Made by a program: the position numbers and the translations under genes
The notes under the pieces: generated by a model
The model's input: the letters and a program-made list of their open reading frames with translations, nothing else
What the model was told of the DNA's origin: nothing
Database searches by the model: none
In this document: positions 3,194-63,554 of the stretch, piece by piece
Numbering within the stretch: position 1 is the first letter of the stretch
How the letters are laid out: each line of letters opens with the position of its first letter
Source of the DNA: Clostridia bacterium
GTDB taxonomy: Bacteria > Bacillota > Clostridia > RGIG6154
DNA length: 64,000 bases
Reading direction: 5' to 3'
NCBI GenBank assembly: GCA_045593265.1
Contig: JAZNWH010000054.1
Location: forward strand, 28,832-92,831

Positions 3194-3198
3194 AATAA

Positions 3199-3233: not shown

Positions 3234-3250
3234 ACATTCCCATCTTGTTA

Positions 3251-3319: not shown

Positions 3320-3360
3320 TGCTATGATTATTATAGTGTTACTATGTAATAAAAGAAAGG

Positions 3361-4918: not shown

Positions 4919-4935
4919 ATAAAATTACATAATTT

Positions 4936-4991
4936 CAGGGGCGGATGTCTGCACCCGTCTGTATGGGCGATGCATCTGTGCCCCTGTTTTT
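4936..4991 (+). terminator. Long GC-rich hairpin plus T-run (terminator or attenuator between ASRT and the creatininase gene)
   Basis: caggggc...gcccctg encloses GC-rich REP-like half sites and is followed by ttttt. Confidence 0.55.
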
Positions 4992-5017
4992 ATTAACCAA
5001 GAAAGGAAGTAAAAATT

Positions 5018-5752: not shown

Positions 5753-5831
5753 AAACAGGTAAAGTAAAAGATAGAAAAAAGAAAATAACGGAGCAGAAAT
5801 ACAACTATTCATAAGGATATAAACAAAAAAC

Positions 5832-5875
5832 AAAACCTTTCAAAGTAGCGTAATTAAGCTATTTTGAAAGGTTTT
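5832..5875. terminator. Bidirectional terminator between convergent genes
   Basis: aaaacctttcaaa...tttgaaaggtttt, with A and T runs on both sides. Confidence 0.75.
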
Positions 5876-5897
5876 ATTTATCGATATGTTTTTATAA

Positions 5898-6809: not shown

Positions 6810-6941
6810 TATTCATCACCTTATTTCATAATATTAAGATACTTATCAAAATTACTATATCATACTTATAATAACATATTGTTTTAAATAAATCAAGAGT
6901 ATACATACATGTGATAGAAAAATAGCTTTCACAAGAAACAC

Positions 6942-6969
6942 AAAAAATTGCGGCATATGCCGCAATTTT
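6942..6969 (-). terminator. Rho-independent terminator of uxaA
   Basis: aaaaaattgcggcatatgccgcaatttttt lies directly after the uxaA stop. Confidence 0.8.
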
Positions 6970-8337
6970 TTACAGGACAATGGAGTCTTTAAATATGGAA
7001 ATTTCACGATAGTTGTTAATTTCGTTTTTGGTTTCTTTTCCTGATGCTGTATCAAGAACAAAGTCAAAAAAATCATCGTCCAGGTCAATACCTTTTAACA
7101 AAGGGGATGCATCAAAATCAATCCAGTCTGATTTTTTTAAGGCTAAATTTTCATTGGTGGATATTTTAATCGTGGGAACAGGTGCTCCTAAAGGCGTACC
7201 TCTGCCTGTTGTGAACAAAATAAGATGAACACCGCAGGCTGTTAAATTGGTAATAGCTACAATGTCGTTGCCTGGTCCATTTAAAAGAGAAAGACCGTTT
7301 TTGTTTAATGTATCTCCGTAACTTAAGACATCCACAATTTCGCCCTGACCGCCTTTTTGAATACAGCCAAGGGATTTTTCCTCCAAGGTGGTAATTCCGC
7401 CTTTTTTATTACCGGGAGACGGATTTTCGTAAACCACCTGATTATGGCTTGTGAAGTAGTCCTTGAAGTTGTTTACAAGGGATACTGTTTTATTGAAGAT
7501 TTCTTCGTTTTTGCACCTTTTCATAAGAAGATGTTCTGCACCGAACATTTCAGGCACTTCGGTAAGAACACAGCTTCCACCAAAAGAAATGAGTTTGTCG
7601 GAAAATCTGCCAACAAGAGGGTTGGCGGTAATTCCCGAAAGCCCGTCGCTTCCTCCGCATTTTAAACCCACCTTTAATTTTGAAACGGGAATATCCTGTT
7701 TTTCAAAACTGTCAGCATATTCTTTTAGTTCATTTATAAGCTTTATACCCTCGGCAATTTCGTCTTCAAAGTCCTGACAATTTAAGAATTTAACTCTGTT
7801 TTCATCAATGTTACCTAAAACCTTTTTAAACTCTTCGATATTGTTATTTTCACACCCTAAGCCAAGAACAAGGACACCCCCTGCGTTAGGGTGATTTACA
7901 AGACCTTTTAAAATAAGCTGTGTTGTTTTATGGTCATCTCCAAGCTGAGAACAGCCGAAGGGATGTGGGAAGGAAAATGCCCCTGTTTCCTTTGAGAGCT
8001 TTTCAGAGATTTTATTTACGCATCCAACGGTGTTTACAATCCATATGTCGTTTCTTATGCCCACATCACCATTTTTTCGGATGTAGCCTTTGAAAGTTTT
8101 ATTGGATTGCTTTTTAGGTTCTGGGCTAAAGGGAGAATATGTGTATTCGATTTTCCCCGACAAGTTTGTTTTTAAATTATGGGTATGTACAAGGTCGCCC
8201 TTTTTTATGGTTTCCGTTGCGTGCCCTATAGCCTCACCGTATTTAATTATATTTTCACCTTTCAAAATATCTTTTAAAGCATATTTGTGCCCGTCAGCTA
8301 AATTAACTTCAACATTATCTTTTTTGTTTATAACCAT
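6970..8337 (-). CDS. uxaA: Altronate dehydratase (UxaA family, SAF domain plus large domain)
   Basis: 455 aa. It has an N-terminal SAF-like segment (GHKYALKDILKGENIIKYGEAIGHATETIKKGDLVHTHN) and a UxaA-type C-domain. It is adjacent to uxaB. Confidence 0.75.
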   Translation of the reverse strand: MVINKKDNVEVNLADGHKYALKDILKGENIIKYGEAIGHATETIKKGDLVHTHNLKTNLSGKIEYTYSPFSPEPKKQSNKTFKGYIRKNGDVGIRNDIWIVNTVGCVNKISEKLSKETGAFSFPHPFGCSQLGDDHKTTQLILKGLVNHPNAGGVLVLGLGCENNNIEEFKKVLGNIDENRVKFLNCQDFEDEIAEGIKLINELKEYADSFEKQDIPVSKLKVGLKCGGSDGLSGITANPLVGRFSDKLISFGGSCVLTEVPEMFGAEHLLMKRCKNEEIFNKTVSLVNNFKDYFTSHNQVVYENPSPGNKKGGITTLEEKSLGCIQKGGQGEIVDVLSYGDTLNKNGLSLLNGPGNDIVAITNLTACGVHLILFTTGRGTPLGAPVPTIKISTNENLALKKSDWIDFDASPLLKGIDLDDDFFDFVLDTASGKETKNEINNYREISIFKDSIVL

Positions 8338-41532: not shown

Positions 41533-42963
41533 TTAATCCCTATAAAAAATACCATTTTTAAAGTGACCAGATGGCAAATCAATAATTTGCTCTTTTTTCT
41601 TTTTGTTATCTTCACTATTGCTATTAACGGCAACATCATTTTCGGATGGTTTAACAGCCTTGATAGCAGCACTTAATGCAGTTAAAGTGTTATTCACTTT
41701 AATATCCCTTTGAGGGTCAACCCTCATTCTACCATCCCTATCATGAATATAGTATTTCTTAGTTGTTTCGGGTTTTGAATGCCCTGCCAACTTTTGCAAA
41801 TCATCTAATGGGATATTTCCTTCCAATGCCAATTCAGTTAAGAAAGTATGCCTGAAATCATGATAAGAAAAATCAAGGTCTACCATCTCACCCTTGTCAT
41901 TTTCTATCAGGAATCGGTGCTTACCAGTTGTCTTTTCAACTCTACGAGTTGCATATTTAGTGCTATCAGATGTTAAGAACTCACCTTTGGGTTTTACATT
42001 AACGAAGTTATGTACATAAGCCTGAAAAAATTCTCCATCTTCTGTTTCAATACCTACACTACGTAGACCATTTTCGTATGCGCTACCATATCTTTCTTTA
42101 TTCTTTTCCTGCTTAGCCTTCAATTCCAACAAAAATTCACGAAGAGGTTGAGACATCGGAACTTTTCTGTCACTTGCAGTCCTTTTTAAAGAAGATAACC
42201 ACCACAACCCTTTTTCAGAGCTATATAATAACTGCTTATTGATATACACTTCATTAGAATCAAAGTCTATATCGTCCCATGTTAGTCCGAATATTTCAGA
42301 TATTCTAGCACCTGTATTTATTGCAATAACAAAAGAGGCATAGGTATTAGAAGTTTTAAGGCCACTATCAATAACAGATAACTCCTTAGCATACAGATAG
42401 CGTCCCTCTTCCTTTGGAATACCTTTTTTACGCCAATCCGCTTGCTCAGTTGCTTTAACCTTAAGCATAGGATTTTTATCTATCATATCATTTTCAAGAG
42501 CATAATCAAAAGTAACCTTCATAGCCTTGTATATACCAAAAATATATTCCTGTGAATACACAATATCCTTATGGTAATTACAATCTTCTGTACGCTCACC
42601 TTTTTTTGTTAGGAAAGCCTTGATATCACCAGGTGTTATCTTTGCAATTTTGACAGTTCCCCAATAAGGCACGATGTGATTTTTCAAAAGACTATTACGC
42701 TTCCTTATAGAGGCTTCCTTATATACACCCGAATGAGTCTTTTCTTCCCAAACCTCTACAAAAGTCCAATCCCTAGTCTTGGTCTTAACATCCTTGACCA
42801 TAACTGCCTCTAACCACTTATCACGAGCACAAGCCGCTTCGTATGGAGTATCGAAACCGCTTTCGCTATGTTTATATAGCCTACCACTTTCGTCCCTATA
42901 CTGAACCCTGTACTCAAACTTTTCACCGCGTGCTCGCACGCCTGTAGGTAATTTCTCACCCAT
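41533..42963 (-). CDS. int: Tyrosine-type site-specific integrase with an AP2-like arm-binding N-domain
   Basis: The N-terminus is GEKFEYRVQYRDESGRLYKHSESGFDTPYEAACARDKW. The C-terminus is ARISEIFGLTWDDID...HDFRHTFLT...LAGHSKPETTKKYY (R..HxxR..Y). RBS is aaggag. Confidence 0.9.
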   Translation of the reverse strand: MGEKLPTGVRARGEKFEYRVQYRDESGRLYKHSESGFDTPYEAACARDKWLEAVMVKDVKTKTRDWTFVEVWEEKTHSGVYKEASIRKRNSLLKNHIVPYWGTVKIAKITPGDIKAFLTKKGERTEDCNYHKDIVYSQEYIFGIYKAMKVTFDYALENDMIDKNPMLKVKATEQADWRKKGIPKEEGRYLYAKELSVIDSGLKTSNTYASFVIAINTGARISEIFGLTWDDIDFDSNEVYINKQLLYSSEKGLWWLSSLKRTASDRKVPMSQPLREFLLELKAKQEKNKERYGSAYENGLRSVGIETEDGEFFQAYVHNFVNVKPKGEFLTSDSTKYATRRVEKTTGKHRFLIENDKGEMVDLDFSYHDFRHTFLTELALEGNIPLDDLQKLAGHSKPETTKKYYIHDRDGRMRVDPQRDIKVNNTLTALSAAIKAVKPSENDVAVNSNSEDNKKKKEQIIDLPSGHFKNGIFYRD

Positions 42964-43299
42964 GTTAAACACTCCTTAAACTAAAATTTCCTTTTTAAGT
43001 TTGTTGAATGCTACCGTAAACAAACAACTTAGTCAAGGGGTACGCGAAAGTTTCTCCACTTTGACCAAATTCTTTTCTGCATCAGCACAACAAGATATCA
43101 CACAAATACCAACCTAAAAAGGTTATACTATTATTAAAAGTGTCCAATGCACAGTGTTAACTTGAGGCATTTCTCCGAGTTTTCAAAAAAATTATCTGCA
43201 TAAAAATGAAAAAACAGGCTAATGTCTTTACACATCAACCTGTTTACGATTGCTTAACGCATCACAATAGGTATTTCAAGTAAAATTTTACAAAAGTAA

Positions 43300-43997: not shown

Positions 43998-44237
43998 TTA
44001 TTGTACACGCACTATCTCTATACCTGCAATTGGAAGTAAGATTGAATCTGTGCTAACAATTACATCGTAGGCCTCTTTGCTATTTAGGAACTCCTGCTCC
44101 GAATGTAGAGTGACAGTAACTAGCAGATTATTTGCATCCGCGTAGTCATGAAGTACCTTTAATTTTTTGGATTCTTCCACTTCATCAGAAGCCTTTAGGA
44201 AGAAAGCACAACGCCTAAAATTATTCACTTTAACCAA
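43998..44237 (-). CDS. Hypothetical small protein, co-transcribed with the resolvase
   Basis: 79 aa. Its start overlaps the resolvase stop by 8 nt. Confidence 0.4.
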   Translation of the reverse strand: MVKVNNFRRCAFFLKASDEVEESKKLKVLHDYADANNLLVTVTLHSEQEFLNSKEAYDVIVSTDSILLPIAGIEIVRVQ

Positions 44238-44922
44238 CCCTTTCTGAAATTAATTCCCGCTTATACTTATAATAAGTATTACGACTAACCCCAACTATTG
44301 CCATTAAATCCACATCACTCAAGGAACCATCGAAGTCTTTAGAAAGTTCCTGAATCTTGCTTTTAGCAACAACAGATTTTTTAACATTTAACTTTCTACC
44401 CTTTACGCCACCAACTTGTTTGCCCTCTAACTTTGCAGTTACCAGACCCTCTGCTGTTCTTTTATGCAAATCTTCCACCTCTTTGGCAGCCTGCTCGAAG
44501 GCTATCCTTATTTGTTTTTCTGCAAGTTTACGGAGATATAGATTTACCCCTTCCAAGATATAATCTACATCTTCTCCTGTAAGAGCCACCTGACGCTGAA
44601 GTGCTTCTTTATAAACATCGGTGTTAATGTGGGGCTCTTTTAAAAACACCAAAGAAATACCCTTATCATATAACTCAAAATACAAGGCAACACCCTCATC
44701 CGCATTTCTGCTCATACGACTAACAGAATCAAAAATAATTCTATCCCCAGACTTGACCACCCTTAACAACTTGTCTAATTCCTTGCGACCATAGAACTTG
44801 GTGCCTGTAAATACTTCCTGAAAAATTATTGCATCAGGGGAAACTGCCAGAATATTGCGAATTTGCCTGTCAATAGATTGCCTTTTAGTACTGATTCTTG
44901 CATAACCATAGTCTTTGCCCAT
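44230..44922 (-). CDS. Serine recombinase (resolvase/invertase family) with a C-terminal HTH
   Basis: YGYARISTKRQSIDRQ carries the catalytic Ser...IFDSVSRMSRN...C-terminal VGVSRNTYYKYKR. Confidence 0.85.
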   Translation of the reverse strand: MGKDYGYARISTKRQSIDRQIRNILAVSPDAIIFQEVFTGTKFYGRKELDKLLRVVKSGDRIIFDSVSRMSRNADEGVALYFELYDKGISLVFLKEPHINTDVYKEALQRQVALTGEDVDYILEGVNLYLRKLAEKQIRIAFEQAAKEVEDLHKRTAEGLVTAKLEGKQVGGVKGRKLNVKKSVVAKSKIQELSKDFDGSLSDVDLMAIVGVSRNTYYKYKRELISERVG

Positions 44923-44962
44923 ATAGAACACCTCCTAAAGTATTAAAACTAACGAACGCTAA

Positions 44963-45736: not shown

Positions 45737-46210
45737 TTATTCCTCATCAATATTGGTGGGAAGTTTACCTATTATTTCAAACAATTCCTTTTTAATAACA
45801 AATGGTTGAGTAAAGGCATCTAATACCAACCCTACAACATTTTCACGAGCCATTGCCATACTCATGGCTTCAAAGGTATGCTTTTCTACCTTGCTGAACC
45901 TACCGCCATAGTCTTCGCCCATTTGCTCACAATTAGAGAATATTGGGAAGAACAACTCATCGCCATTTTGCAAGATATCAGGCTCCATCTTAATATCATT
46001 CATAGATTGGATAACATCACCTTTTTGTGCATTAAGGAATTGTTCCGCATCTTCATTGCTTATAACAGAATTACATGGAATCCATATAAAACTATCTCTC
46101 AAGCAGCGCAACAAGGCAAACAGGTTTTGCTCTGTTCTGTCATTATTAAATTGAGCAACTAACGCCCTTAAAACATTACCGCCCTCAAGGGTTTCTCTTT
46201 TTACACCCAT
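45737..46210 (-). CDS. SseB-like domain protein (hypothetical)
   Basis: 157 aa. LFALLRCLRDSFIWIPCN...DELFFPIFSNCEQMGE resembles SseB N-domain proteins. It lies 13 nt downstream of hsdR and is followed by a terminator at about 45683-45725. Confidence 0.4.
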   Translation of the reverse strand: MGVKRETLEGGNVLRALVAQFNNDRTEQNLFALLRCLRDSFIWIPCNSVISNEDAEQFLNAQKGDVIQSMNDIKMEPDILQNGDELFFPIFSNCEQMGEDYGGRFSKVEKHTFEAMSMAMARENVVGLVLDAFTQPFVIKKELFEIIGKLPTNIDEE

Positions 46211-46223
46211 TACAAATCACCTC

Positions 46224-49200
46224 TTATACCAAGCCGAAATACTTTTCAAAGAATTTCAACATTTTATCAATAATACCCTGTTTTTTCTCGGCTCTGTTAC
46301 CACCGCCGAAGCGAGATACAGGAGGCATGAGTTTATCAATATCTGTTCCTGTAGTTTTAAGAAGCCCATCCCTGAAAGCATTATCCATAAAGCGCCTGGT
46401 CTCATCGGCCTTTAACTTTTCACCCGCAATCAACTCATCGAGGTCAGACTCCTTTTGTTCCTTAACAAACTTGAGCCAATCACGACTCACATCAGTATCG
46501 GCATTTATTGACGCAATAAAGTTATCAATAAGCTCTTTTTTAGACCTGAGTGCAAGACTTGACTTAATTGCTTTATCAATAGAAGCAAGAATTTCCTTAT
46601 CCTTACAATTAGATTTATGATATTTAGCCACAAGCATCAGTATATAATCAATATTAACCTCTACCTGCTTAACAAGTTCCATTTCAAAGACAATATCATC
46701 TTTTATACTATCCTTTTCGCCTGTAGGCTTAAACTCATTCCTTATATCAAGATATGTACCCGTATAATCCTGAAAATCAATAGGTAATAATATTTCATTA
46801 CCCGCAAACTTATCAAAGGATGAAAGTATATTCCTGAGTCTTAATATATTACCAAATAAAATTACAAAATCCTTTTTATTTTGCTCGCCTATAATTTGTT
46901 CGCTTAAAGGATATTTCTGCAGGAGTTGTGCTATACGCTCCTCATAGCCAATCTGATGCTTACCATTATCATCCTCATAGCCATAATAGTAATCCTCATA
47001 GGATTTTAAAAGCACAATACCTGTGGCATCCTTATCGCCGAACAGGGATATAGCATCTTCAGTTTCCTGTTGTAAATCTCTGAAGCACACAATATTACCA
47101 AAGGTTTTAACCGAGTTTAATATTCTGTTTGTTCTTGAGAATGCCTGAATCAACCCATGTTGCTTTAAGTTCTTATCTACCCATAAGGTATTAAGAGTAG
47201 TAGCATCAAAGCCTGTCAAGAACATATTAACAACAATCAATAGGTCAATTTCTCTCTTTTTAACCTTATCGGATAAGTCCTTATAATAATCCTGAAAGCC
47301 TTTATCGGAAGAATCAAAGTTAGTCTTAAAGGTCTTGTTGTAGTCCGCAATTACATCATCAAGAAAATCACGAGAGCTCTTATCTAATTTTTCTGTGTCA
47401 AAGCTCTCATCCTCCAAGATTCCATCGGCATTATCGGATTCATTAGGAGCAAAGGAATATATTGTAGCAAAGGTAAAATCCTTATGCATTTCCTCAACCT
47501 GCTTTTTAAACTCTAAATAATACTTTTTAGCCATTGGGATAGAACTTACTGCAAACATAGAGTTAAAGCCATTTACCCTCTGACCTTTAAGGCTATAATA
47601 AGAATTACGCTTTGTCTTTTGGTCAAAATGCTCTAATATATATTTTACAATTTCCTCAACTCTTTCGTGAGAACCCAGAACCTCCTCTGTGTTTATAGCA
47701 TGAACCTGCTTATCTGTCATACCTTCTTTTGCCGCAACAGTATTAACATAGTCAATCCTGAATGGTAGAACATTGCCATCGTTTATAGCATCAACAATAG
47801 TATAGGTGTGAAGTTTATCACCAAACGCCTGCTCGGTAGTACGCATATTAGGATTGCCACTATTTGAAGAGTTTACAGCAAAAATAGGAGTTCCTGTAAA
47901 CCCAAATATATGATAATTTTTAAACTCTTTTACAATACGAGCATGCATATCACCAAACTGACTCCTGTGACATTCATCAAATACCAATACCATGTGCTTT
48001 TGGTAAACAGGATGCCCTGAATTTCTTTTTACAAACTCGTCTAATTTCTGAATAGTAGTAACAATAATTTTAGAAGAGTCATCCTCTAACTGCTTCTGCA
48101 GCACTTTTGTGCTTTTATTACCATTTGCAGCACCTTTTTCAAATCTATCATATTCTTTTATAGTCTGATAGTCTAAATCCTTTCTGTCTACCACAAAAAG
48201 CACCTTATCAACATAGTCAAGAGAGGTAGCAAGTTGGGCAGTCTTAAAAGAAGTTAAAGTTTTACCCGAGCCAGTTGTATGCCAGATATACCCACCAGCA
48301 GACAACTCACCAGTCTTTTTATAATTTGTAGAAACTTCAATCCTGTTTAAAATACGTTCAGTTGCAACAATCTGATATGGTCTCATTACAAGCAGAAGCT
48401 CCTCGCTTGTAAATATGCAGTATTTAGTTAAGATATTAAGGATAGTATGCTTTGCAAAGAAAGTCTTTGTAAAGTCCACAAGGTCAGCAATTACCTTATT
48501 ATTACCATCCGCCCAGAACGAAGTAAACTCAAAGCTGTTGCTTGTCTTTTTACTGCTTGACTTTGAATTTTTGTTACCTTCCTTTATTGCACTATCCCTT
48601 GTGGTATTAGAATAGTATTTTGTATGTGTACCATTAGAGATAACAAAGATTTGTACATATTCATACAAACCGCAGCCAGCCCAGAAACTTTCCCTTTGAT
48701 ACCTATTTATCTGGTTAAAAGCCTCTTTTAAAGCAACGCCTCTGCGCTTTAACTCAATATGAACCAGAGGCAACCCATTAACCAGAACAGTTACATCATA
48801 CCTATTATCATGAGTTCCGCCATCTTCAACATACTGATTCAGTACCTGAAGGCTATTATTGTGAATATTCTTTTTATCAATCAGGTATATGTTTTTAGTG
48901 CTACCGTCATCACGCTTTAATACCTGAATAAAGTCCTCTTGTATTCTACGAGTTTTCTCTACAATGCCCTCATTACTATTTGAGATATTAGAGTTATAAA
49001 AGGACTCCCATTCTTTATCGCTGAACTTATAATTGTTTAACTTTTCAAGTTGTCCCCTTAAATTGCTAACCATATCATCGGCCTTATGTATTTGTATATA
49101 CTCATAGCCTTGCTCGGACAGCATTTTTATAAAAGCAGCCTCCAAAGCAGCCTCGCTCTGATAAGCATCAGAACGCTGCTTCTGTGGCTCATATTCAGTA

Positions 49201-49247
49201 ACAACAGTACTTTCAGAAGTCGAAAGAATTATATTATATTGGCTCAT
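46224..49247 (-). CDS. hsdR: Type I restriction enzyme, R subunit
   Basis: 1007 aa. Has an N-terminal nuclease region (VLVNGLPLVHIELKRRG) and SF2 helicase motifs (HTTGSGKT, VFDECHRSQ, FTGTP, QAFSRTNR). Confidence 0.95.
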   Translation of the reverse strand: MSQYNIILSTSESTVVTEYEPQKQRSDAYQSEAALEAAFIKMLSEQGYEYIQIHKADDMVSNLRGQLEKLNNYKFSDKEWESFYNSNISNSNEGIVEKTRRIQEDFIQVLKRDDGSTKNIYLIDKKNIHNNSLQVLNQYVEDGGTHDNRYDVTVLVNGLPLVHIELKRRGVALKEAFNQINRYQRESFWAGCGLYEYVQIFVISNGTHTKYYSNTTRDSAIKEGNKNSKSSSKKTSNSFEFTSFWADGNNKVIADLVDFTKTFFAKHTILNILTKYCIFTSEELLLVMRPYQIVATERILNRIEVSTNYKKTGELSAGGYIWHTTGSGKTLTSFKTAQLATSLDYVDKVLFVVDRKDLDYQTIKEYDRFEKGAANGNKSTKVLQKQLEDDSSKIIVTTIQKLDEFVKRNSGHPVYQKHMVLVFDECHRSQFGDMHARIVKEFKNYHIFGFTGTPIFAVNSSNSGNPNMRTTEQAFGDKLHTYTIVDAINDGNVLPFRIDYVNTVAAKEGMTDKQVHAINTEEVLGSHERVEEIVKYILEHFDQKTKRNSYYSLKGQRVNGFNSMFAVSSIPMAKKYYLEFKKQVEEMHKDFTFATIYSFAPNESDNADGILEDESFDTEKLDKSSRDFLDDVIADYNKTFKTNFDSSDKGFQDYYKDLSDKVKKREIDLLIVVNMFLTGFDATTLNTLWVDKNLKQHGLIQAFSRTNRILNSVKTFGNIVCFRDLQQETEDAISLFGDKDATGIVLLKSYEDYYYGYEDDNGKHQIGYEERIAQLLQKYPLSEQIIGEQNKKDFVILFGNILRLRNILSSFDKFAGNEILLPIDFQDYTGTYLDIRNEFKPTGEKDSIKDDIVFEMELVKQVEVNIDYILMLVAKYHKSNCKDKEILASIDKAIKSSLALRSKKELIDNFIASINADTDVSRDWLKFVKEQKESDLDELIAGEKLKADETRRFMDNAFRDGLLKTTGTDIDKLMPPVSRFGGGNRAEKKQGIIDKMLKFFEKYFGLV

Positions 49248-50503
49248 ACACCTTGTGCCTCCAATCTTTTCACTTTGCTATCTAAATGTGCTTTCAAATC
49301 TTCGCTTTTGGTTATTGGGATAATTTCTTTATCTGTTATGAATTTGAGGATTAGTTCTGCACAATAAGCTTTTGCATATGCCAAGTCTCCTTTTAGAACA
49401 AAGACTCTGCTACCGTGTGATATTTCTGAACGTTGATTATAAGTAATCTTAAAATCTCTTTTTGTTGCTATATAAGTTTCTAAACTGTCAGAAATCATAG
49501 CCGACAAATAGTTTGTTATCATTTGGGTTAAGTCTTTTTCGTCGTATTCTATTAGAGCTTCAATAGCGGTTATATACATTACGAATTTTTGAGCATCAGA
49601 ACGTTCGTGGATAATTCTCCCATAAGTTGTGAATGCATACCTGATTCGTTCATTGACCTCATTTTTTTCTGTTGAGGATAATCTCTCGATTAACGACTTA
49701 AAAATCGGGGAAACTGTATGAACTAAATTGTATGCATCAATATTCTCGTGCCTGTAAATATCATTTTCAAACTTTTCATAATTTTGCATGTGTGACGAAA
49801 TAAAACAACGCCCAAACACAGGGTGAAAATCGTCAAATACGCAAACCGAGTAAGCGTTCCACTTGTTAATGTCAAAGAAAAATTGACAAATACCTTGAAA
49901 TACCTCAAATTTATATCTTGCCAACTCATATGCTTTTTTAACATCTGAAGTTTCAATAGCAGTAGAAATCCAAACAGGATGTTCTTTGAATTGTTGATGA
50001 TACTCCAAAAAAGTTTCTTCTGTTTCATAGCCTGTTAGTTTAAAAATATGTTCTTTATGCAGATTATAATCGTAAAGAGTAAAACAACCTATTTCCAGAG
50101 GAATATCTGTATTAACATCTACGCCATAAAGAGTGAAGAAAACATACTGTCTATCAACTTTAGCCATGTTAAGTTTATTATAAAACTTATCAAAGTTTTT
50201 TACTGTTACGCTCTCGTTCATAACTTTTAACCTTATCATAAAATGATGAAGTTTATCTGCAACATAATCAATAGAGAACTTTTCTTCGATACTCCCAGAA
50301 GAATATATCTGCCAAAAAGTATTATGATAAGAATCTGCGTAATCTTTAGATAAATGAAATGAGTAGTGTTTATTTATACGCTCGAAATAGTGAGAAAAAT
50401 GCACGCAACTATCTGGGGAACGCTTCGAGTCCACACATCCCTCATATATTTCTGCATATGAAATTAATTCATTCAGTTTCTCTATTACTTCGGTTTTTTT
50501 CAT
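49244..50503 (-). CDS. Unknown 419-aa protein with a C-terminal R-x4-H (HEPN-like) motif, embedded in the type I R-M operon
   Basis: 4-nt overlaps with both the hsdS stop and the hsdR start. The C-terminus reads ...FVMYITAIEALIE...KITYNQRSEISHGSRVF.... No P-loop is present. Confidence 0.45.
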   Translation of the reverse strand: MKKTEVIEKLNELISYAEIYEGCVDSKRSPDSCVHFSHYFERINKHYSFHLSKDYADSYHNTFWQIYSSGSIEEKFSIDYVADKLHHFMIRLKVMNESVTVKNFDKFYNKLNMAKVDRQYVFFTLYGVDVNTDIPLEIGCFTLYDYNLHKEHIFKLTGYETEETFLEYHQQFKEHPVWISTAIETSDVKKAYELARYKFEVFQGICQFFFDINKWNAYSVCVFDDFHPVFGRCFISSHMQNYEKFENDIYRHENIDAYNLVHTVSPIFKSLIERLSSTEKNEVNERIRYAFTTYGRIIHERSDAQKFVMYITAIEALIEYDEKDLTQMITNYLSAMISDSLETYIATKRDFKITYNQRSEISHGSRVFVLKGDLAYAKAYCAELILKFITDKEIIPITKSEDLKAHLDSKVKRLEAQGV

Positions 50504-51759
50504 GTGGTTAATTCCTTAAAAGATAATAGTTTGTCGCGATAGTATTCGTATTGCTTCTGTCTGGCTTCAATCTCTGCAGGTAAGCCTTCTGAAATATCAT
50601 TACAAAGCATATCAAATTTTTTTAGTGCATCAATTATACGTTGTTGTTCTTTCTTTTCTATTAAAGGCAACTTGAATTTTCTGATTTTTTCCATAGGTAT
50701 ATTTTGCATAGAAGAAGCCTGCAACAATTTAGAAATCTGCTCAGCTTTAAACTTATCTGTCAGAAAATAGTACATCATATATTCAGGAATGAATCTATCA
50801 TCTGTAATGCGAATAAGGGCAACATTAGGAGCTAAATAGTATTTGTCATCTTCGTTTATGAGAGCAACTTGTCCAACAGTTCCTACATAAGTAAAGAGCA
50901 TATCGCCGATACGTAGTTTACTTCTTGTAATCATATCAAGGTCGCTTCCGTCTATGTATTTGACATCATCTAATACAAGATGCCCATTTTTTACATTTAA
51001 CCCTCTTAATGCTATTATTTCACCTACATCAGAATACTTAACATATTTTGTAAACTCAAAGCCAGCCAACTTAGTAACAGTAGCTACTTCACCAAGCTCA
51101 ATCCAATTAACATTAGTATCTTTAACGCAAGGGAATAGGCTTGAAGAATAATACTCATATTGTGTTTTACGAGCTGTAAGCTCTGCTGTAAGCTCTGCTG
51201 TAAGCTCTGTGAAATTGTCAAGTATCTTGACAATTTCACCCTGTACCTCAATAGGAGGTATAGGAATAATGACTTTTCTCATTTCTGACATTGGAACACT
51301 TTTAACAGTTCCACCAGCAGCCTTCCTTAAGTAGCTTTCCTTAATTTCCTTTGAAGTAAGTACATACATTAGAAACTTTGACAATATTTTATTAACGTCA
51401 GGCTTAATAACATATACTCCTTCTTTTATATTCCAATTATAAGGGTCATTTTCTATCAAAGCAACTTCGCCTATTGTTCCAGTTCCTGAAAATAAAACAT
51501 CACCAATTTCAAGGTTGGAACGATTATTACACAGTTTCAATGCCTCATCATTTATTTTGTCAGTTTTCTCTGAAAAAACGATACTCATATTGTGTATTTC
51601 ACGTATTGTTACATAGTAATTTTGAGCATCCTCTGTATTTAATTTGAAGAATTGTCTTGGATTTAGTCCTGTATTAAGTGACAATATTACATCATTCAGT
51701 GGACTATACTCTACACCATTAGGGCACAGTTCTTTTATAAGTTTGTCTAATCTGCTCAT
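50500..51759 (-). CDS. hsdS: Type I R-M specificity subunit
   Basis: 419 aa. Two target-recognition domains are separated by a central helix (FTELTAELTAELTARKTQYEYY). The C-terminal conserved helix is RQKQYEYYRDKLL. Confidence 0.9.
   Translation of the reverse strand: MSRLDKLIKELCPNGVEYSPLNDVILSLNTGLNPRQFFKLNTEDAQNYYVTIREIHNMSIVFSEKTDKINDEALKLCNNRSNLEIGDVLFSGTGTIGEVALIENDPYNWNIKEGVYVIKPDVNKILSKFLMYVLTSKEIKESYLRKAAGGTVKSVPMSEMRKVIIPIPPIEVQGEIVKILDNFTELTAELTAELTARKTQYEYYSSSLFPCVKDTNVNWIELGEVATVTKLAGFEFTKYVKYSDVGEIIALRGLNVKNGHLVLDDVKYIDGSDLDMITRSKLRIGDMLFTYVGTVGQVALINEDDKYYLAPNVALIRITDDRFIPEYMMYYFLTDKFKAEQISKLLQASSMQNIPMEKIRKFKLPLIEKKEQQRIIDALKKFDMLCNDISEGLPAEIEARQKQYEYYRDKLLSFKELTT
51173..51208. 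repeat. Three perfect tandem copies of a 12-bp unit in the hsdS central conserved region
   Basis: gctgtaagctct x3, encoding the (T)ELTA-ELTA-ELTA / TAEL repeat. Confidence 0.9.
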
Positions 51760-53321
51760 TACTGCACCTCAATTTCTGCTATTATATCATCAATAGCGGC
51801 TCTCAAGGTCGCTTGACGAGCGACAATTTCTTTTATTTCTGCATTTAATTTTACTATATCAACCTTTTCTCTTGTGTCCTTCTGCTCAACATAGGTAGAT
51901 ACAGACAGATTATAATCCTGTTCTGCAATTTCATCAAAAGCAGCAAGATGAGAAAAGTGTTCTACTTCTTCACGACTTTCAAATACCCCTACAATTTTAG
52001 AGATATTTTCATCGGTAAGCATATTATTATTCGTAACCTTTACAAACTCATTAGAAGCATCTATAAATAAGGTTTTATTATCTGCCTTCGACTTCTTCAA
52101 TACCATAATACAGGTAGCAATAGAAGTACCAAAGAAAAGGTTTGAAGGTAACTGAATAACACAATCAACATAGTTATTATCTACCAGATACTGCCTTATC
52201 TTTTTCTCCGCACCGCCTCTGTACATAATACCAGGGAAGCAAACAATAGATGCTGTTCCATTGGTGGCAAGCCAAGCAAGTGAGTGCATAATGAATGCCA
52301 AGTCCGCTTTAGATTTCGGAGCCAGAACACCCGCAGGAGAAAATCGGGGGTCATTGATTAAAACAGGGTTATCATCGCCCTCCCATTTGATAGAGTAAGG
52401 AGGATTTGATACGATAACCTCGAATGGCTCATCGTCCCAATGCTGAGGGCTTATAAGAGTATCCTCGTTTGCTATATTAAATTTATCATAAGCAATATCA
52501 TGCAAGAACATATTTATTCTGCAAAGATTATATGTAGTAGGATTTATTTCCTGACCATAATACCCCTGACGAACATTATCCTTACCTAATATAGTTTCTG
52601 CTTTAAGAAGCAGAGAGCCAGAGCCACACGCAGGGTCATAAACCTTATTTACTTCTGTTTTACCCACTACAGCAAGACGAGTCAAAAGCTCGGACACTTC
52701 CTGCGGAGTGAAGAACTCACCGCCAGACTTACCAGCATTTGAGGCATACATACCCATTAAATACTCATAAGCATCACCAAATACATCAATAGAATGGTCT
52801 TTATAATCCCCAAGTTCCATATTGCCCACACCATCAAGGAGTTTTACAAGTTTATCATTTCTCTTTGCAACTGTGGCGCCCAATTTATTACTATTAACAT
52901 CATAGTCATCAAACAGGCCTTTGAAGTCATCTTCACTTATACTGCCTTGCGCCGATTCTTCTATATGCCTGAACACCTTTTCTAAAGTTTCATTAAGATT
53001 ATCATCCGAAGGAGCCTTCGTTCTTACATTACAGAATAGTTCAGAGGGAAGAATGAAAAATCCCTTTTCTTCTACAAGGCTATCCCTTGCCGATTCCGCA
53101 TCACTATCAGGCATCTTTGCATAATCAAAATCAGCATTACCCGCAGCCTGCTCACCTTCGTTAATATAGTTAGTCAAATTTTCTGATATATAACGATAGA
53201 ACATCGTACCCAGAACATACTGTTTAAAATCCCAACCATCAACAGAGCCACGCAAGTCATCTGCAATAGCCCATATTGCTTTATGTAATTCTTCTCTTTG
53301 TTTATTATTTATTACAGCCAT
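51759..53321 (-). CDS. hsdM: Type I R-M N6-adenine DNA methyltransferase subunit
   Basis: 520 aa. Has the HsdM N-domain ([14 protein letters not shown]), the SAM motif (DPACGSGS) and the catalytic motif (VSNPPYS). Confidence 0.95.
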
Positions 53322-53617: not shown

Positions 53618-53830
53618 TAGTCACCTCAAGAATACAAAATATAATAATATTCTATCATAAAATATATAATTTTTCAAGCTTTACACCGAAAATATCTACA
53701 CTTTTTATCATATTTTTTATTTCGGAGCATTTCTGGCTACTTTGTAAGCCTTTTAATTACTTCGCAACAAATTACCCCAACTATTTATTAAAAAGCATTT
53801 GTGGCTATTTTTGAGCCTTTTGTAAACGCT

Positions 53831-55000
53831 TTAAGGATGACAATTCCCGCAACTGTCATACCCGCTATTGACCGCATCCGCTCTGGAACTGAAATACACC
53901 CTGTTTTTTTCTATAGGCAAAGAGTGACAAGTAGGCTTGTGGAACTTCTTGGAATTCTTATTGCCAATATATGTTCCCGTGCTTTCTGTTCCTTTAAATA
54001 CATTTTCATGCTCATATGATGTTGGGTTAGTTTCTATATTTTCATTTCTTGCAGTAGTAACAGTAATATCCTTGCCATTGCTTTCAACTATAATATCACC
54101 CTGCAGGTCTGTTCTATAAACCTTCGCACCCGCATCTCTGAATCTGCTCAAAGCATCCTCGTCAGGATGCCCATATTGATTACCCTTACCAACAGAAATA
54201 ACCACATATTCAGGCATGACCTCTCTTAAGAATTGATATGAGGATGAAGTATCGGAGCCATGATGACCTGCTTTTAAAACAGTAGCAGACAAATCATACC
54301 CCTGACTCAAGATGTCGTGTTCTTCTGAATACTCTGCATCGCCTGTAAACAGGAATGATGTATCTCCGCACACCACCTTAGTTATGATTGAGGTATTGTT
54401 CAAATCATCTTCATTTTCATAGGTGGGGCAATACAACTCTACAGAGCAACTACCCAGATTAAAAGAAGTACCAGAATCAGGATGGGCTATACTTTTACCC
54501 GCTGAAGCCACCTTGCTTTTAAAAGATTGATAAAACTTTGCATCATTTTCTGTTCTTGGCGCATATATTACCCCTACTGAAGCCTTTTGTAAAGCACCAG
54601 ACAAGCCTCCCATATGGTCTTCGTGAGCATGAGTTCCCACAATATAGTCAAGATGAGAAATCCCCAGCCTATCGAGATAGGAATATATCCTACTACTATC
54701 CTCAACATTACCGCCATCAATAAGCATAGCACTATCACCGCTAATCAGGAGTGCAGCATCCGCCTGACCTACATCAATAAAGTGTACTTTAAGACCATGT
54801 TGTATTACCTGTGTGGTGGTATCTTCTGACTCTTTCTCTGACTCAGTACCCGATTCAACAGGTTTCTGCGACTCTGTTACCTCTGTTTGTGTTCTTTTGG
54901 TAATAGTGGTGGTATCAGTTGAGGTCTGAGAGCCGCAAGCACTCAAAATACCCACAACCATTAGTAAAGACAGCAATACACCTAAAAATTTTCTATTCAT
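53831..55000 (-). CDS. Secreted lipoprotein: MBL-fold hydrolase (ComEC C-domain-like) with a C-terminal Ada-like Cys4 zinc module
   Basis: Has a lipobox (LSAC), an MBL domain (VHFIDVGQADAALL...GTHAHEDHMGG...GHHGS) and a tail reading KFHKPTCHSLP...GYDSCGNCHP. Confidence 0.7.
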   Translation of the reverse strand: MNRKFLGVLLSLLMVVGILSACGSQTSTDTTTITKRTQTEVTESQKPVESGTESEKESEDTTTQVIQHGLKVHFIDVGQADAALLISGDSAMLIDGGNVEDSSRIYSYLDRLGISHLDYIVGTHAHEDHMGGLSGALQKASVGVIYAPRTENDAKFYQSFKSKVASAGKSIAHPDSGTSFNLGSCSVELYCPTYENEDDLNNTSIITKVVCGDTSFLFTGDAEYSEEHDILSQGYDLSATVLKAGHHGSDTSSSYQFLREVMPEYVVISVGKGNQYGHPDEDALSRFRDAGAKVYRTDLQGDIIVESNGKDITVTTARNENIETNPTSYEHENVFKGTESTGTYIGNKNSKKFHKPTCHSLPIEKNRVYFSSRADAVNSGYDSCGNCHP

Positions 55001-60370: not shown

Positions 60371-62782
60371 TTATCCCTCAACACAGACCTGCTTCAAAAA
60401 GTCAGATATACTTTGACCTACACATTTTGCTAGAAAAACAGGTACTGCATTTCCAACTTGTCTATAAACCGCATGAGTACCGCCTATAAACTTAAAATCG
60501 TCAGGAAATGTTTGTATTCTCTTAATCTCATTTTCATTTAGCGGTCTATTCTCTACTGGATGACAGATTGTGTTAGGTTCAGAAGCGGCAATAGTACAAC
60601 ATACTTTATTGAAATGAAGTCTTCTATATCTTCTGAATCTATTGACCGATATTGCGAACTCACCATCTTCATCAAGCAACGACTTATCAAAATTTTTTAA
60701 ATCTGCCGCCTTGCCAGGTTTAGCACTTGCAAGTACATGTTCAACATTAGCGCTATATTTTATATATCTTCCGTCTGGTAAACCCTTTATTGCCTTTTTC
60801 AAAGTTATATGATTCGCCTTATCAAGAATAGGCTCTGGAAATTTATATTCAACCCCCATTCTTTTGGCCTTGTCTTGTATATCCTGTCTTATTGCAACCA
60901 GAAATACACGAAGCCTATTTTGAGGAACACCATAATCAGCAGCATTAAGTACCTTAACAGTAGAATATAACTCATCATTTTCTTGGAAAGCAGCAAAATA
61001 ACCGAGTTTTCGTATTTCTGCTAACATGTATTCAATTACGTCACTCTCTTCCGCACTAACAAGTGCTTGTACATTTTCGATGAATAAAACCTTTGGCTTG
61101 AGGCACTCTGCGATTTTTAAGTAGTCATCAAAAAGCATCCCACTATCACAATTCATGTGTTCTCTCTTGCCTAAGTTACTATAGGAAGTACAAGGAATTC
61201 CACCACATAAAACATCCAGCCCTGTATCCTCCTGCTCAAGTAATATCTTATACAATGTACTTTTATCCATTTCAGGATATTGTTCCAATAATGCCTCTAC
61301 TTTTGGCTTAAGAACACTAGCCACTATATCTTCTTTAATATCATCTTTGGTGATGTCACCCAGAATAATATTTTCTTTACCAAAGTTTTGTATTTGTGTT
61401 TCTACAGCCTGTTTATTAAACTCAACTGAGGCATAAGATTTAAAGCCTGAAATATGCATACCCAAAGATAGTCCACCTGCCCCAGAACAGACCTCGGCAA
61501 AACTAAATTTACTATCTGATATACCCACAACTTTTTCGATAGCCCATTCCAATCTTAACTGTCGCATGCTATAAGAAAGATTATTTGACTTTGGAGTTAA
61601 ATCTTTCTCTTGTTCCAAGAAATACCTATCCAATTGAGCCGCTGTCATACCGTCTGTGAGTTTATAATTTTGAGTACAATCATATTCCTTATAACCAACT
61701 TGAGTGTCCGCTTCAAACAATTCCGTTAACTTCGAAGTCTCAAAGTTACACCAGATATATTCCTGAGCCACTTTGCCTAGTTGCGCAACCGAGTAACCAC
61801 TTTCTGTTAATACTGAAGCAGAAAATGAAAGTACATTGCCAATACCAGGAAGTATTTTTTCTAACTTCTTCATATTTTCCTGATTAACAGGAGAATCAAT
61901 CTTACTTTTTGTAATATCGTAATCGGACTTACGCCTGTCATGTATTATACTACCCGTACCATAACAATGCCAATTATCCTCTACAAACAGGCATTTATAA
62001 GGAATTAAACCTGCTTGATGCATACATATCATAACCTTACACTTACAATCCTTGCAAAGTGCTATCAACTCTTTGTGTTTTCTATAAGACCAACTGTTCT
62101 TATAGCAGTCTGTATTAAAGTATGGTGGGTCAATGACTATCATCATCTGTTCATCGTCCTGATATTCCTTGACGATGTCGAAACAATCTTCATTTCTTAC
62201 TTCCATATACTTTAAACACGCGTGTGATTCCATCAGGTTTTCCATATATGACTTTCTGAATAAAAGTTTGTCCAAGAAGTTATATGAAACCTTGTTGTTT
62301 TTACCTACATATTTGTAAAAAATCGTGTTTCTGTTATTCTGATAAGAACCCCAGATTACAATTATTGCTAAAGCTCCAATCAGTACAGGGTCCAACCTAG
62401 AAAGTTTATCAGGCCCACATACAACATATTTTTTTGCAACATCAAATAGCGCCTTGAACTTTTCTTCGTCAGTAGCATCAAAATCCATTGCCAATACTGA
62501 CTTAATAATATGAGTAACCACAGTATTAAGAATCAGTATATTATCTTGTTTCTGTAGCAATTTCATTAAAGTTGCCAACCCAAACTCCCATTCGTTATAA
62601 CCCATAAAATCAAACTTCATGTGGTTTAGGGCGAAGGACAGCTTTCCGCCGCCCCCGCACACATCATAGAACTTTGATACATTGCCTGCTTCCACCTGTT
62701 CATATATAATATCTCTAATGGTTTCAGCCAGCCTTGTTTTACCTCCTAAAGAGGGAATACCCTTTACCTTCTTACTGCTCAT
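60371..62782 (-). CDS. Fused DNA methyltransferase: N-terminal N6-adenine (D12/Dam-like, DPPY) plus C-terminal C5-cytosine (Dcm-type)
   Basis: The N half has SLGGKTRLA and VIDPPYFNTDCY. The C half has FAEVCSGAGGLSLG (motif I), GGIPCTSYS (IV), LFIENV (VI), QNRLRVFLVA (VIII) and YRQVGNAVPV (X). The start at MSSKKV has the RBS gaaggagg. Confidence 0.85.
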   Translation of the reverse strand: MSSKKVKGIPSLGGKTRLAETIRDIIYEQVEAGNVSKFYDVCGGGGKLSFALNHMKFDFMGYNEWEFGLATLMKLLQKQDNILILNTVVTHIIKSVLAMDFDATDEEKFKALFDVAKKYVVCGPDKLSRLDPVLIGALAIIVIWGSYQNNRNTIFYKYVGKNNKVSYNFLDKLLFRKSYMENLMESHACLKYMEVRNEDCFDIVKEYQDDEQMMIVIDPPYFNTDCYKNSWSYRKHKELIALCKDCKCKVMICMHQAGLIPYKCLFVEDNWHCYGTGSIIHDRRKSDYDITKSKIDSPVNQENMKKLEKILPGIGNVLSFSASVLTESGYSVAQLGKVAQEYIWCNFETSKLTELFEADTQVGYKEYDCTQNYKLTDGMTAAQLDRYFLEQEKDLTPKSNNLSYSMRQLRLEWAIEKVVGISDSKFSFAEVCSGAGGLSLGMHISGFKSYASVEFNKQAVETQIQNFGKENIILGDITKDDIKEDIVASVLKPKVEALLEQYPEMDKSTLYKILLEQEDTGLDVLCGGIPCTSYSNLGKREHMNCDSGMLFDDYLKIAECLKPKVLFIENVQALVSAEESDVIEYMLAEIRKLGYFAAFQENDELYSTVKVLNAADYGVPQNRLRVFLVAIRQDIQDKAKRMGVEYKFPEPILDKANHITLKKAIKGLPDGRYIKYSANVEHVLASAKPGKAADLKNFDKSLLDEDGEFAISVNRFRRYRRLHFNKVCCTIAASEPNTICHPVENRPLNENEIKRIQTFPDDFKFIGGTHAVYRQVGNAVPVFLAKCVGQSISDFLKQVCVEG

Positions 62783-63554
62783 TGTCAGTACCTCCTTCGA
62801 TTTCAACATTAAACTCATAAGGCTCAACATTTATTATGTAGCACCTTGTGTCTTTGGCTTCAGAACTAAGAGTAATATCCCAACCCCTGTTGTAACTTGT
62901 ACTTAAGAAAAGTACATTTCTTGCCGCCAATTCTTTAACTACACTACCGAGTTCTACACCGTCATTCTTATCCCACCCCATAAGGTTTTTAAGTTCGCTG
63001 TATTTAACAGCCAGTACAGTTTTACCATACAAGTGATTGTAATACTTGTTATCAAGCCATATTCCTAAAGTCTCTTTAGTTGCATTGTTTTTGGACATCC
63101 AAGTGAATTCAGAACATTTATCCTCAAGGCTTTCAAACAATCTGTTGTGATACCTATCTATATAATTATCGGAAAGAAGAGGATTGAGAATTCTGTCAAT
63201 ACTCTCACCCTTTTCGGTGTCCAAAACAATTACACGATTTTCAGGGTCTGTATCTTCATCATGAAGAATATAGGTTTGAACGATAAGTTCTAACTCAGTT
63301 ACAATAGTACTATTTATTACACCACACGCCTCAAGTCTGCATAAAATATCTTTACTGATTTTACCCATACTCATTTTACTTTTAAGAAAGCTCACAGACT
63401 GTTTGTCACCCTTTTTCGAGCTGAACTCGATTGCATAAACTTGACCATTACATTCAGAGTATCTACCACGATACACTTTAACGTCCCACCAGTCATTAAA
63501 ATAGGGGTCGTGATTACCTACTCTTGCCTCAATTACATCTGAATAATTTTTCAT
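62772..63554 (-). CDS. Hypothetical protein upstream of, and overlapping, the fused methyltransferase gene
   Basis: 260 aa. Its stop overlaps the methyltransferase start by 11 nt. No motif recognised. Confidence 0.4.
   Translation of the reverse strand: MKNYSDVIEARVGNHDPYFNDWWDVKVYRGRYSECNGQVYAIEFSSKKGDKQSVSFLKSKMSMGKISKDILCRLEACGVINSTIVTELELIVQTYILHDEDTDPENRVIVLDTEKGESIDRILNPLLSDNYIDRYHNRLFESLEDKCSEFTWMSKNNATKETLGIWLDNKYYNHLYGKTVLAVKYSELKNLMGWDKNDGVELGSVVKELAARNVLFLSTSYNRGWDITLSSEAKDTRCYIINVEPYEFNVEIEGGTDNEQ

Follow-up and report, generated by a model that had tools for sequence, protein, structure and literature searches.

What function could a gene of no recognised family have between the specificity and restriction genes of a type I restriction-modification (R-M) operon? 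The question arises from a 64,000-nucleotide stretch of a Clostridia bacterium genome (NCBI GenBank assembly GCA_045593265.1, contig JAZNWH010000054.1, positions 28,832 to 92,831 of the forward strand), hereafter the window, in which a 419-residue open reading frame (ORF), termed X in this work, lies between hsdS and hsdR. An earlier examination of the letters alone (the sequence-only reading) had proposed that X is an R-M-guarded abortive-infection RNase of the HEPN class. The analysis presented here makes X the founding example, in the window, of an unnamed family of two-domain proteins, and the reading that we favour, with moderate confidence, is that X is a self-contained sensor and HEPN RNase that would abort infection and that is expressed together with the R-M system. 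What is new is the unannotated family, its novel N-terminal domain and a predicted minimal HEPN domain resembling that of ApeA; the occurrence of HEPN genes inside R-M operons is known. To our knowledge, HEPN RNases in such operons have been recognised since 2013, and PrrC is the only one that has been worked out mechanistically.

The gene and the parts of its product discussed below are the following:

49244..50503, minus strand: X, ORF of 419 amino acids with an ATG start
49697..50503, minus strand: residues 1-269 of X, the N-terminal domain, with mixed alpha/beta structure, putative sensor/regulatory domain (AlphaFold2 model)
49247..49696, minus strand: C-terminal HEPN-like domain of X, residues 270-419 (AlphaFold2 secondary structure and profile A7)
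49559..49561, minus strand: E315, acidic and invariant, on helix 2 of the predicted HEPN core (alignments A2 and A3)
49415..49432, minus strand: R358-S-E-I-S-H363, R-x4-H motif, predicted catalytic residues (R and H invariant in 139 sequences)

An unnamed family of two-domain proteins

X itself gave no match in scans of Pfam, NCBIfam and PADLOC and has no close relative in the PDB. Its close homologues fall into 17 clusters, all of about 419 amino acids, unnamed and all metagenomic in origin. An exhaustive phmmer search of 1.84 billion representatives (of clusters at 50% identity) recovered 257 relatives at E <= 1e-3, nearly all of them 380-445 amino acids long and matched over most of their length. 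The bulk of these lie at 18-30% identity, full-length homologues reach down to about 20%, and where the source names them it does so as 'hypothetical protein'. Word-indexed searches with profiles A3 and A7 added almost no further relatives. Close relatives are present in only two metagenome-assembled genomes (MAGs) of a 185,579-species genome collection, namely a Clostridia bacterium (98% identity), which is probably the window's own species, and a Eubacteriales bacterium (54%). Neither a tblastn search of plasmids and phages nor a scan of the IMG/VR viral contigs returned a match to X. Since Pfam, NCBIfam and PADLOC contain no model of the family, it escapes current defence annotation.

For the more sensitive comparisons reported below we used profiles of the close family (A1), of the broad family over its full length (A2), of the C-terminal domain of the close family (A4), of the C-terminal domain of the broad family (A7, built from 38 diverse members) and of the N-terminal domain (A8). 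Conservation was counted over 139 sequences with a mean column identity of only 20%, the motif count covered 138 full-length members, and the scans of individual members with Pfam and PADLOC covered 118 members.

A C-terminal HEPN-like domain

The sequence-only reading had pointed to the string YNQRSEISHG in a helical C-terminal part of X as an R-x4-H motif of the type that defines HEPN active sites, and both the location and the type of the motif were borne out. In the AlphaFold2 model of the whole protein (predicted local distance difference test score, pLDDT, 84; predicted template modelling score 0.82) a mixed alpha/beta N-terminal part is followed by an all-helical part from residue 257, which holds the motif, with the codon of R358 at nucleotides 49432-49430 and that of H363 at 49417-49415. 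Across the 139 aligned sequences E315, R358 and H363 are invariant, and G127, G139, G295, Y355 and S359 nearly so; the check on R and H conservation that had been proposed along with the motif hence came out in its favour. R-S-x3-H is present in every full-length member (138/138), at about 85% of the protein length, and the family thereby displays, as R358-S-x3-H363, the Rx4-6H signature with a polar residue after the R that is used to recognise HEPN domains. As read from the model, the C-terminal domain consists of helix H1 (282-299), helix H2 (303-318, bearing E315), an insert helix (325-337), helix H3 (341-362) and helix H4 (371-390), with R358 near the end of H3 and H363 as the first loop residue after it. 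The helix layout of HEPN domains has been described by Anantharaman et al. (PMC3710099), as has an acidic residue in helix 2 (PMC3710099), and the topology of the modelled C-terminal domain agrees with that layout.

When A7 was compared with all PDB sequences, the only meaningful matches were chains from cryo-electron microscopy structures of ApeA (Ec2 at E 4.5e-5, Ec3 at 1.9e-3, Ec4 at 0.09, Thr1 at 0.2 and Ec1 at 0.4). Positions 16-77 of the profile align to residues 341-401 of Ec2ApeA, placing 'iaiEaLl' over 'IAIESLI' with the helix-2 Glu matched, and positions 72-125 align to residues 480-534, placing 'klYgkRSaiaHgg' over 'RIYRTRNLIVHTGK'; by this alignment R358 and H363 of X therefore fall on R502 and H507 of ApeA. 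In both Ec2ApeA and Ec3ApeA, for which alignments were shown, the H1-H2 and H3-H4 segments are collinear with those of X and the R-x4-H motifs are aligned. The chain of the R502A mutant scores lower with A7; this substitution defines the catalytic mutant from which the best ApeA map was obtained (bioRxiv 10.64898/2026.01.26.701840). The remaining profiles gave little against the PDB sequences, with no match for A1, SSU72 alone for A2 (E 0.9) and Cas13b alone for A4 (E about 2), and the family consensus derived from its hidden Markov model, when run against Pfam, returned a weak match to HEPN (PF05168, E 0.036) and otherwise only low-complexity noise.

The recurrent Pfam families found when the 118 members were scanned singly were all of the HEPN class: RiboL-PSP-HEPN (PF18735) in 11 (best E 3.9e-5), HEPN_Apea (PF18739) in five and MAE_28990 in one. 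The RiboL-PSP-HEPN matches, although the commonest and located at the R-x4-H region, remain under the 28.4-bit gathering score where scores are listed and do not include X of the window, and the domain architectures differ. Taken together, the sequence criteria and the predicted topology support a place for the C-terminal domain in the HEPN superfamily, and X is inferred to be an RNase.

Other leads were discarded. An hhalign comparison with RnlA gave a 24-column match at '99%' to the C-terminal tail that is plainly spurious; an architecture like that of RnlA/LsoA (TBP-like N-terminal domain plus HEPN) found no support in Pfam, PADLOC or the PDB; and DARNA was ruled out, its HEPN domain being N-terminal.

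An N-terminal domain without detectable relatives

The N-terminal domain is modelled with pLDDT mostly at 85-93, with a dip to 72 at residues 21-30 and a low-confidence stretch at 224-252. No relative of these approximately 270 residues was found in Pfam, NCBIfam, PADLOC or Foldseek searches, and profile A8 matched no PDB sequence, with no ApeA appearing even at E 10, in keeping with the earlier remark that the N-terminal 300 or so residues match nothing recognisable. The domain nonetheless has conserved features of its own, namely the near-invariant G127 and G139 and a conserved G-x-F-T-x-Y...H stretch. A Walker A motif is not conserved in the family; the pattern [AG]x4GK[ST] occurs in 7 of the 139 sequences, by chance and at non-equivalent positions. 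Likewise, X matched no P-loop or ABC family in the Pfam, NCBIfam and PADLOC scans. As X has neither a P-loop nor an ABC domain, it is not PrrC or RloC, and on this point the sequence-only reading was right.

A compact relative of ApeA

The best functional parallel to X is offered by ApeA, a tRNA anticodon nuclease that brings about abortive infection as a single protein; as a HEPN system of this kind it was reportedly described by Gao et al. in 2020. Among its defining traits are a ring of HEPN dimers, cleavage of tRNA in the anticodon and a small activating ligand; structures of it are available as 9HXB-9HXN (bioRxiv 10.64898/2026.01.26.701840). Both proteins are single polypeptides in which a large non-catalytic N-terminal region packs on a HEPN domain at the C terminus, and the H1-H2 and H3-H4 segments of these HEPN domains are those aligned by the profile, with the R-x4-H motif and the helix-2 Glu matched. 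The differences are nevertheless considerable. X has 419 residues against about 550-620 in ApeA; in ApeA about 80 inserted residues divide the HEPN domain between H2 and H3, where X has a single short helix and where the profile positions aligned to the two ApeA pieces (16-77 and 72-125) are contiguous and overlap; and the mixed alpha/beta N-terminal domain of X has no detectable similarity to the N-terminal or Mid domains of ApeA, with no ApeA_NTD1. X of the window does not match HEPN_Apea, the best of the five member matches has E 0.018, and the two scores listed for members (13.9 and 14.3 bits) fall below the 24.4-bit cut-off. The PADLOC model of ApeA is matched neither by X nor, among their listed matches, by the 118 members. 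By these sequence searches X fails every defining test for ApeA proper, and the suggestion that it might be ApeA-like thus holds for its HEPN domain, not for its N-terminal and Mid domains, the HEPN_Apea threshold or the PADLOC model. A compact relative of the newly solved ApeA with an uncharacterised N-terminal domain of quite another kind, X invites comparison with it as to what turns HEPN effectors on.

The host operon and its junctions

The genes and sites of the operon in which X is found are as follows:

51759..53321, minus strand: hsdM, type I methyltransferase subunit of 520 amino acids, first gene of the operon (Pfam N6_Mtase, E 5.8e-119; HsdM_N, E 3.9e-22)
50500..51759, minus strand: hsdS, specificity subunit of 419 amino acids, its stop codon overlapping the start of X (Pfam Methylase_S, two stretches, E 8e-36)
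46224..49247, minus strand: hsdR, type IC restriction and translocase subunit of 1007 amino acids (Pfam HSDR_N, ResIII, SWI2_SNF2, T1R_D3-like and EcoR124_C)
50500..50503, minus strand: ATGA overlap of the hsdS stop and the X start (direct reading: ...acc aca TGA / ATG aaa)
49244..49247, minus strand: ATGA overlap of the X stop and the hsdR start (direct reading: ...ggt gta TGA / ATG agc)
53649..53677, minus strand: promoter-like site upstream of hsdM, TTGAAA-17-TAGAAT with extended TG (a consensus match alone)

The ORF listing and the Pfam matches of its neighbours place X exactly between hsdS and hsdR, as had been claimed. All three Hsd subunits carry their characteristic domains, and the HsdR protein matches that of EcoR124I (PDB 2W00) over nearly its whole length (E 9.6e-267). 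Given this match and the EcoR124_C domain, the host system is of type IC, and the locus is a type I (family IC) operon with the order hsdM-hsdS-X-hsdR. The four-nucleotide overlaps reported for both junctions were read directly as ATGA at 50503-50500 and 49247-49244. They are preceded by Shine-Dalgarno-like elements, AAGGA 9 nucleotides before the start codon of X and GGAGG 10 nucleotides before that of hsdR. The co-translation that the sequence-only reading had called almost certain on the strength of these overlaps is best regarded as plausible. Between the promoter-like site and the hsdR stop a single minus-strand site resembles a terminator, within hsdR (46489-46472); such sites are not enriched over shuffled sequence, and no convincing internal terminator was seen. 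Genes for a tyrosine integrase (41533-42972) and for a serine resolvase (44230-44931) lie on the same island as the operon.

Relatives inside type I operons

Nine distinct alleles of X, at 33-98% identity, all lie between the hsdS and hsdR genes of a single R-M lineage, whose HsdM proteins are 79-99% identical to that of the window, with 65-99% for full-length HsdR and 73-84% for N-terminal fragments of HsdR. The four-nucleotide overlaps at both junctions of X are found in the window and in most of the related loci. The alleles, with their identity to X and the loci in which they occur, are:

window, P0001 and L010: 97-98% (P0001 and L010), window, L008, L009 and L010
P0005: 57%, L003 and L004
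Eubacteriales MAG: 54%, L011
P0011: 50%, L007
P0012: 49%, L001 and L002
P0010: 49%, L006
P0018: 39%, L037
P0019: 36%, L016-L018
P0020: 33%, L038 and L039

The survey of homologues for embedding in type I loci, which had been suggested as a check on the guarded-effector proposal, thus gave a positive result for these nine alleles; as described in the next section, it did not do so for a 45% allele or for 15 more distant loci.

Other genes share the junctions with X. In L006 the Tiamat gene tmtA, encoding TmtA of 1011 amino acids (PADLOC, E 6.6e-135), lies directly 3' of X inside the same R-M operon and, together with a 302-residue gene, separates X from hsdR (2052-5997), and a 61-residue zinc-ribbon-like ORF (598-783) stands between hsdS and X. 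The hsdM-hsdS junction is occupied by a DUF4238 gene in L011 (2046-2906), by a 290-residue gene in L001 (3069-3941) and also in L002, and by a 275-residue gene in L007 (112-939). The 290-residue and 275-residue genes match no family, and no pairwise similarity was found among the hsdM-hsdS genes of L001, L007 and L011. The presence of extra genes at both hsdS-hsdR and hsdM-hsdS therefore indicates that these junctions behave as general cargo sites. Such slots, which hold TmtA, DUF4238 and genes of no known family, could be useful in the search for defence genes in gut Firmicutes. An obligate pairing of X with DUF4238 was considered and rejected, the genes in this slot in L001, L007 and L011 being mutually unrelated and the window having none; DUF4238 on its own has been reported as a single-gene anti-T7 system in E. 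coli (PMC9122126).

In the clade at 36% identity the structure of the specificity gene varies. In L016 and L017 hsdS is split into a 429-residue ORF and a 137-residue Methylase_S fragment (5189-6998), whereas in L018 it encodes a single protein of 603 amino acids with three Methylase_S stretches (961-2772). A HipA_C-like gene and an integrase gene are found upstream in both L016 and L017.

Relatives outside type I operons

In one allele at 45% identity (L005) and at all 15 of the more distant loci examined, the relative of X stands as a single gene, not in a type I operon but on a mobile or defence island. The 45% allele, P0016, is the only close homologue outside an R-M operon and is flanked in L005 (2323-5288) by a KilA-N gene on one side and a DUF4238 gene on the other; DUF4238 hence accompanies X in two architectures (L005 and L011). 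P0025 and P0176 from Oscillospiraceae (27-28% identity) adjoin, as noted at L019 8389-9783 and in L020, an ATPase_2/DUF234 protein that matches the PADLOC candidate system PDC-S27 (E 4e-65), on an island bounded by serine recombinases that also carries a Ser/Thr kinase and an amidoligase/GATase pair. P0063 is borne on an element resembling an integrative and conjugative element, and P0073, from Chloroflexota, lies amid insertion sequence elements and recombinases. The 12 further metagenomic loci have mixed neighbours, which include phage terminase, capsid and lysozyme genes, recombinases, an Eco57I-type methylase (once) and a protein bearing an EcoR124_C domain (once). Beside the stand-alone relatives in L005 and the 15 more distant loci no conserved partner gene was seen. 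Given that these relatives lack any hsd partner, the X family can evidently stay in check without an R-M complex.

Divergence of X and its host genes

X has diverged far faster than the genes that host it. Across the loci X averages 50% pairwise identity and HsdR 79%, and the loci are ranked differently by each protein: between the window and L016 HsdR is 80% identical and X 36%. In the comparison of the window with L010 the ratio of nonsynonymous to synonymous substitution rates (dN/dS) is 0.18 in X, as against 0.045 in hsdM and 0.013 in hsdR, and X is thus a real gene under purifying selection. In this pair HsdM is 98.6%, X 97.6% and HsdR 99.6% identical, and all 10 amino acid differences in X lie within residues 4-266. 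Such a fast-evolving N-terminal domain would fit a sensor under the pressure of an arms race. The two hsdS genes, in contrast, encode proteins of 419 (window 50500-51759) and 391 amino acids (L010 5829-7004) that are only about 35% identical, which marks a swap of the specificity gene within what is otherwise one locus. The synonymous divergence of X (0.055-0.069 for the window against L010 and L008), calculated from small counts, is about half that of hsdM (0.126) and hsdR (0.132); the segment that bears X might have been exchanged more recently.

A proposed self-contained effector carried by an R-M operon

How might these observations be brought together? According to the reading that we favour, the N-terminal domain, packed on the HEPN domain, would keep the enzyme off and would sense a cue of infection, either a small molecule or a phage product. 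The HEPN domains of two subunits would pair to form a composite active site from R358 and H363, with E315 nearby, and the active protein would cut RNA without a metal ion. The likeliest targets would be tRNA anticodon loops, with an arrest of translation as the outcome. As for its location, one type IC lineage of the Clostridia/Eubacteriales would have captured X at the hsdS-hsdR junction, where it would share a transcript with hsdM, hsdS and hsdR and be coupled to these genes in translation; by this capture DNA restriction as the first line and RNA cleavage as the second line would thus be inherited, moved and expressed as one unit. The autonomy of X is supported by the 45% homologue and the 15 more distant loci, which are single genes without a conserved partner, and a role in defence by the presence of TmtA, DUF4238 and PDC-S27 among the neighbours of the family. 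Dimerisation, sensing by the N-terminal domain and a defence phenotype are inferences for X, and tRNA is its presumed target by analogy.

Several points weigh against this reading. The target RNA and the trigger are drawn purely from analogy, and the match to ApeA is a distant profile match of 26 bits in two segments. The Pfam HEPN matches of the family members all lie below the gathering score where scores are listed, and X of the window has none of them. The comparison of predicted structures, which the sequence-only reading had put forward as a further check, did not confirm it: in three Foldseek searches (full model against PDB and BFVD, C-terminal domain model against PDB) nothing scored better than E 0.1 and no HEPN protein stood among the 50 matches listed per search, with the limits that helical bundles are a weak spot of the method and that inclusion of the 9HX* entries is uncertain. 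The HEPN fold is therefore not independently confirmed, and the C-terminal domain modelled alone reaches a pLDDT of only 70. Moreover, alleles as low as 33% identity keep strictly to the hsdS-hsdR slot, which exceeds what mere clustering in defence islands would call for and hints at a functional coupling of X to the R-M system, of which the favoured reading has no need.

Such a coupling is at the heart of the alternative that survives best, and which we regard as possible rather than probable, namely that HsdMS or HsdMSR holds X latent in the manner of PrrC and that an anti-restriction factor, such as an Stp-like peptide, Ocr or ArdA, would free it to abort infection by its HEPN RNase activity, the novel N-terminal domain serving as an R-M-docking module in place of the ABC-ATPase of PrrC. 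PrrC of E. coli is encoded in an R-M locus with the gene order prrA-prrB-prrC-prrD (PMC3710099), and EcoprrI, which hosts prrC, is of type IC (PMC12707154), so that both the slot and the R-M family are those of X in hsdM-hsdS-X-hsdR. The two proteins are alike, too, in a C-terminal HEPN-type RNase domain with R...H catalytic residues, which in X is predicted, and in fitting the idea of a back-up behind restriction. For PrrC it has been demonstrated that the R-M complex silences it and that an anti-restriction factor activates it. The nine alleles at 33-98% identity all occupy this exact slot, and the start and stop codons that overlap in most of them would favour a fixed ratio of subunits. There is also precedent for guarded and autonomous members in one family, since PrrC is R-M-linked and its relative RloC is stand-alone, the same split as in the X family. 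A further parallel is offered by Ronin and PARIS, in which abortive effectors are genetically tied to type I R-M components; RonA of Ronin, a 61-residue membrane protein, is a second example of an effector caged by HsdMS, in a locus without hsdR, and PARIS combines an ABC ATPase with a TOPRIM nuclease and senses anti-restriction proteins.

These likenesses do not extend to the sequences. X lacks the ABC-ATPase and Walker A motif of PrrC and showed no similarity to it in any search; it also lacks the long ABC-ATPase and coiled-coil sensor of RloC, which excises the wobble base, and neither Ronin nor PARIS has any sequence or domain similarity to it. Unlike PrrC, most relatives of X are not R-M-linked: the closest homologue outside R-M operons (45%, L005) and all 15 more distant loci examined are without an hsd partner, which points to latency as an intrinsic property of the fold. 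In L006 X is parted from hsdR by tmtA and the 302-residue gene and from hsdS by the 61-residue ORF, and a second slot, hsdM-hsdS, holds unrelated genes, so that the junctions look like general cargo sites. The incongruent phylogenies of X and HsdR, exemplified by the window and L016, are likewise contrary to the co-evolution of a tight interface. Hence the R-M-guarded hypothesis of the sequence-only reading, itself built on analogy with PrrC, is possible, if weakened by the stand-alone context of the relatives. Were it true, X would be of higher interest. The family offers a natural experiment in this respect: in one clade its members keep strictly to a single type IC lineage, and elsewhere they stand alone; with both embedded and stand-alone members at hand, physical control as in PrrC as against mere co-expression is therefore directly testable.

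A more specific version of the guarded effector, which we consider doubtful, would make X an ApeA-type HEPN anticodon nuclease without an NTPase, docking on the type IC complex through its N-terminal domain and firing on anti-restriction. The strategy of PrrC would then have been invented independently in gut Clostridia, and both junctions would be dedicated slots in which guardian or back-up modules (X, Tiamat, DUF4238) are swapped. HEPN genes of several kinds do occur in R-M operons: at least 16 clades have been reported, ApeA among them (PMC3710099), with ApeA-family genes embedded in this way in epsilonproteobacteria (PMC3710099) and Abi2-type (AbiD/AbiF) genes similarly placed (PMC3710099).

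It is improbable that X has no part in a response to phages and acts instead as an addiction or stabilisation toxin in post-segregational killing, its RNase killing or arresting cells in which the element is lost or mis-expressed, or as a processor of hsd mRNA that sets the ratio of methylase to nuclease. In toxin-antitoxin systems HEPN domains do commonly serve as the toxin (PMC3710099), the island of the operon bears a tyrosine integrase and a serine resolvase, and relatives of X reside on mobile elements. However, no conserved gene of antitoxin size stands beside X in any context, a large fast-evolving N-terminal domain is typical of sensor-effector defence proteins and not of toxins, and the neighbours include the known or candidate defence genes of Tiamat, DUF4238 and PDC-S27. 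Least probable of all, and by our estimate very unlikely, is a convergent R-x4-H motif in a protein that is no nuclease but an RNA- or nucleotide-binding accessory subunit, or an enzyme with its active site in the N-terminal domain: Foldseek found no HEPN similarity, no Pfam HEPN model passed its threshold and the N-terminal domain has its own near-invariant glycines and G-x-F-T-x-Y...H stretch, but R, H and the helix-2 Glu are conserved without exception at about 20% identity, which is hard to explain without catalysis, the motif sits in the helix layout as it does in HEPN domains, and the profile matches are specific to the HEPN domain of ApeA with the catalytic residues aligned.

Other genes near the operon

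Three further genes of the window, all on the minus strand, may be mentioned. The first (45737-46210) starts 13 nucleotides past hsdR and encodes a 157-residue protein with a domain resembling the N-terminal domain of SseB (E 6e-9); an SseB-like gene lies 3' of hsdR in L010 as well, and none was seen after hsdR in the remaining loci that were checked, L001 and L016 among them. The second (53831-55000), just upstream of the hsd operon and conserved in L010, encodes a putative lipoprotein that combines a metallo-beta-lactamase fold with an Ada-type zinc-binding domain at the C terminus. The third (60371-62830) encodes a protein of 819 amino acids in which an uncharacterised N-terminal extension of about 430 residues precedes a C5-cytosine DNA methyltransferase domain (residues 435-808) that matches M.HhaI and M.HaeIII at E about 1e-20.

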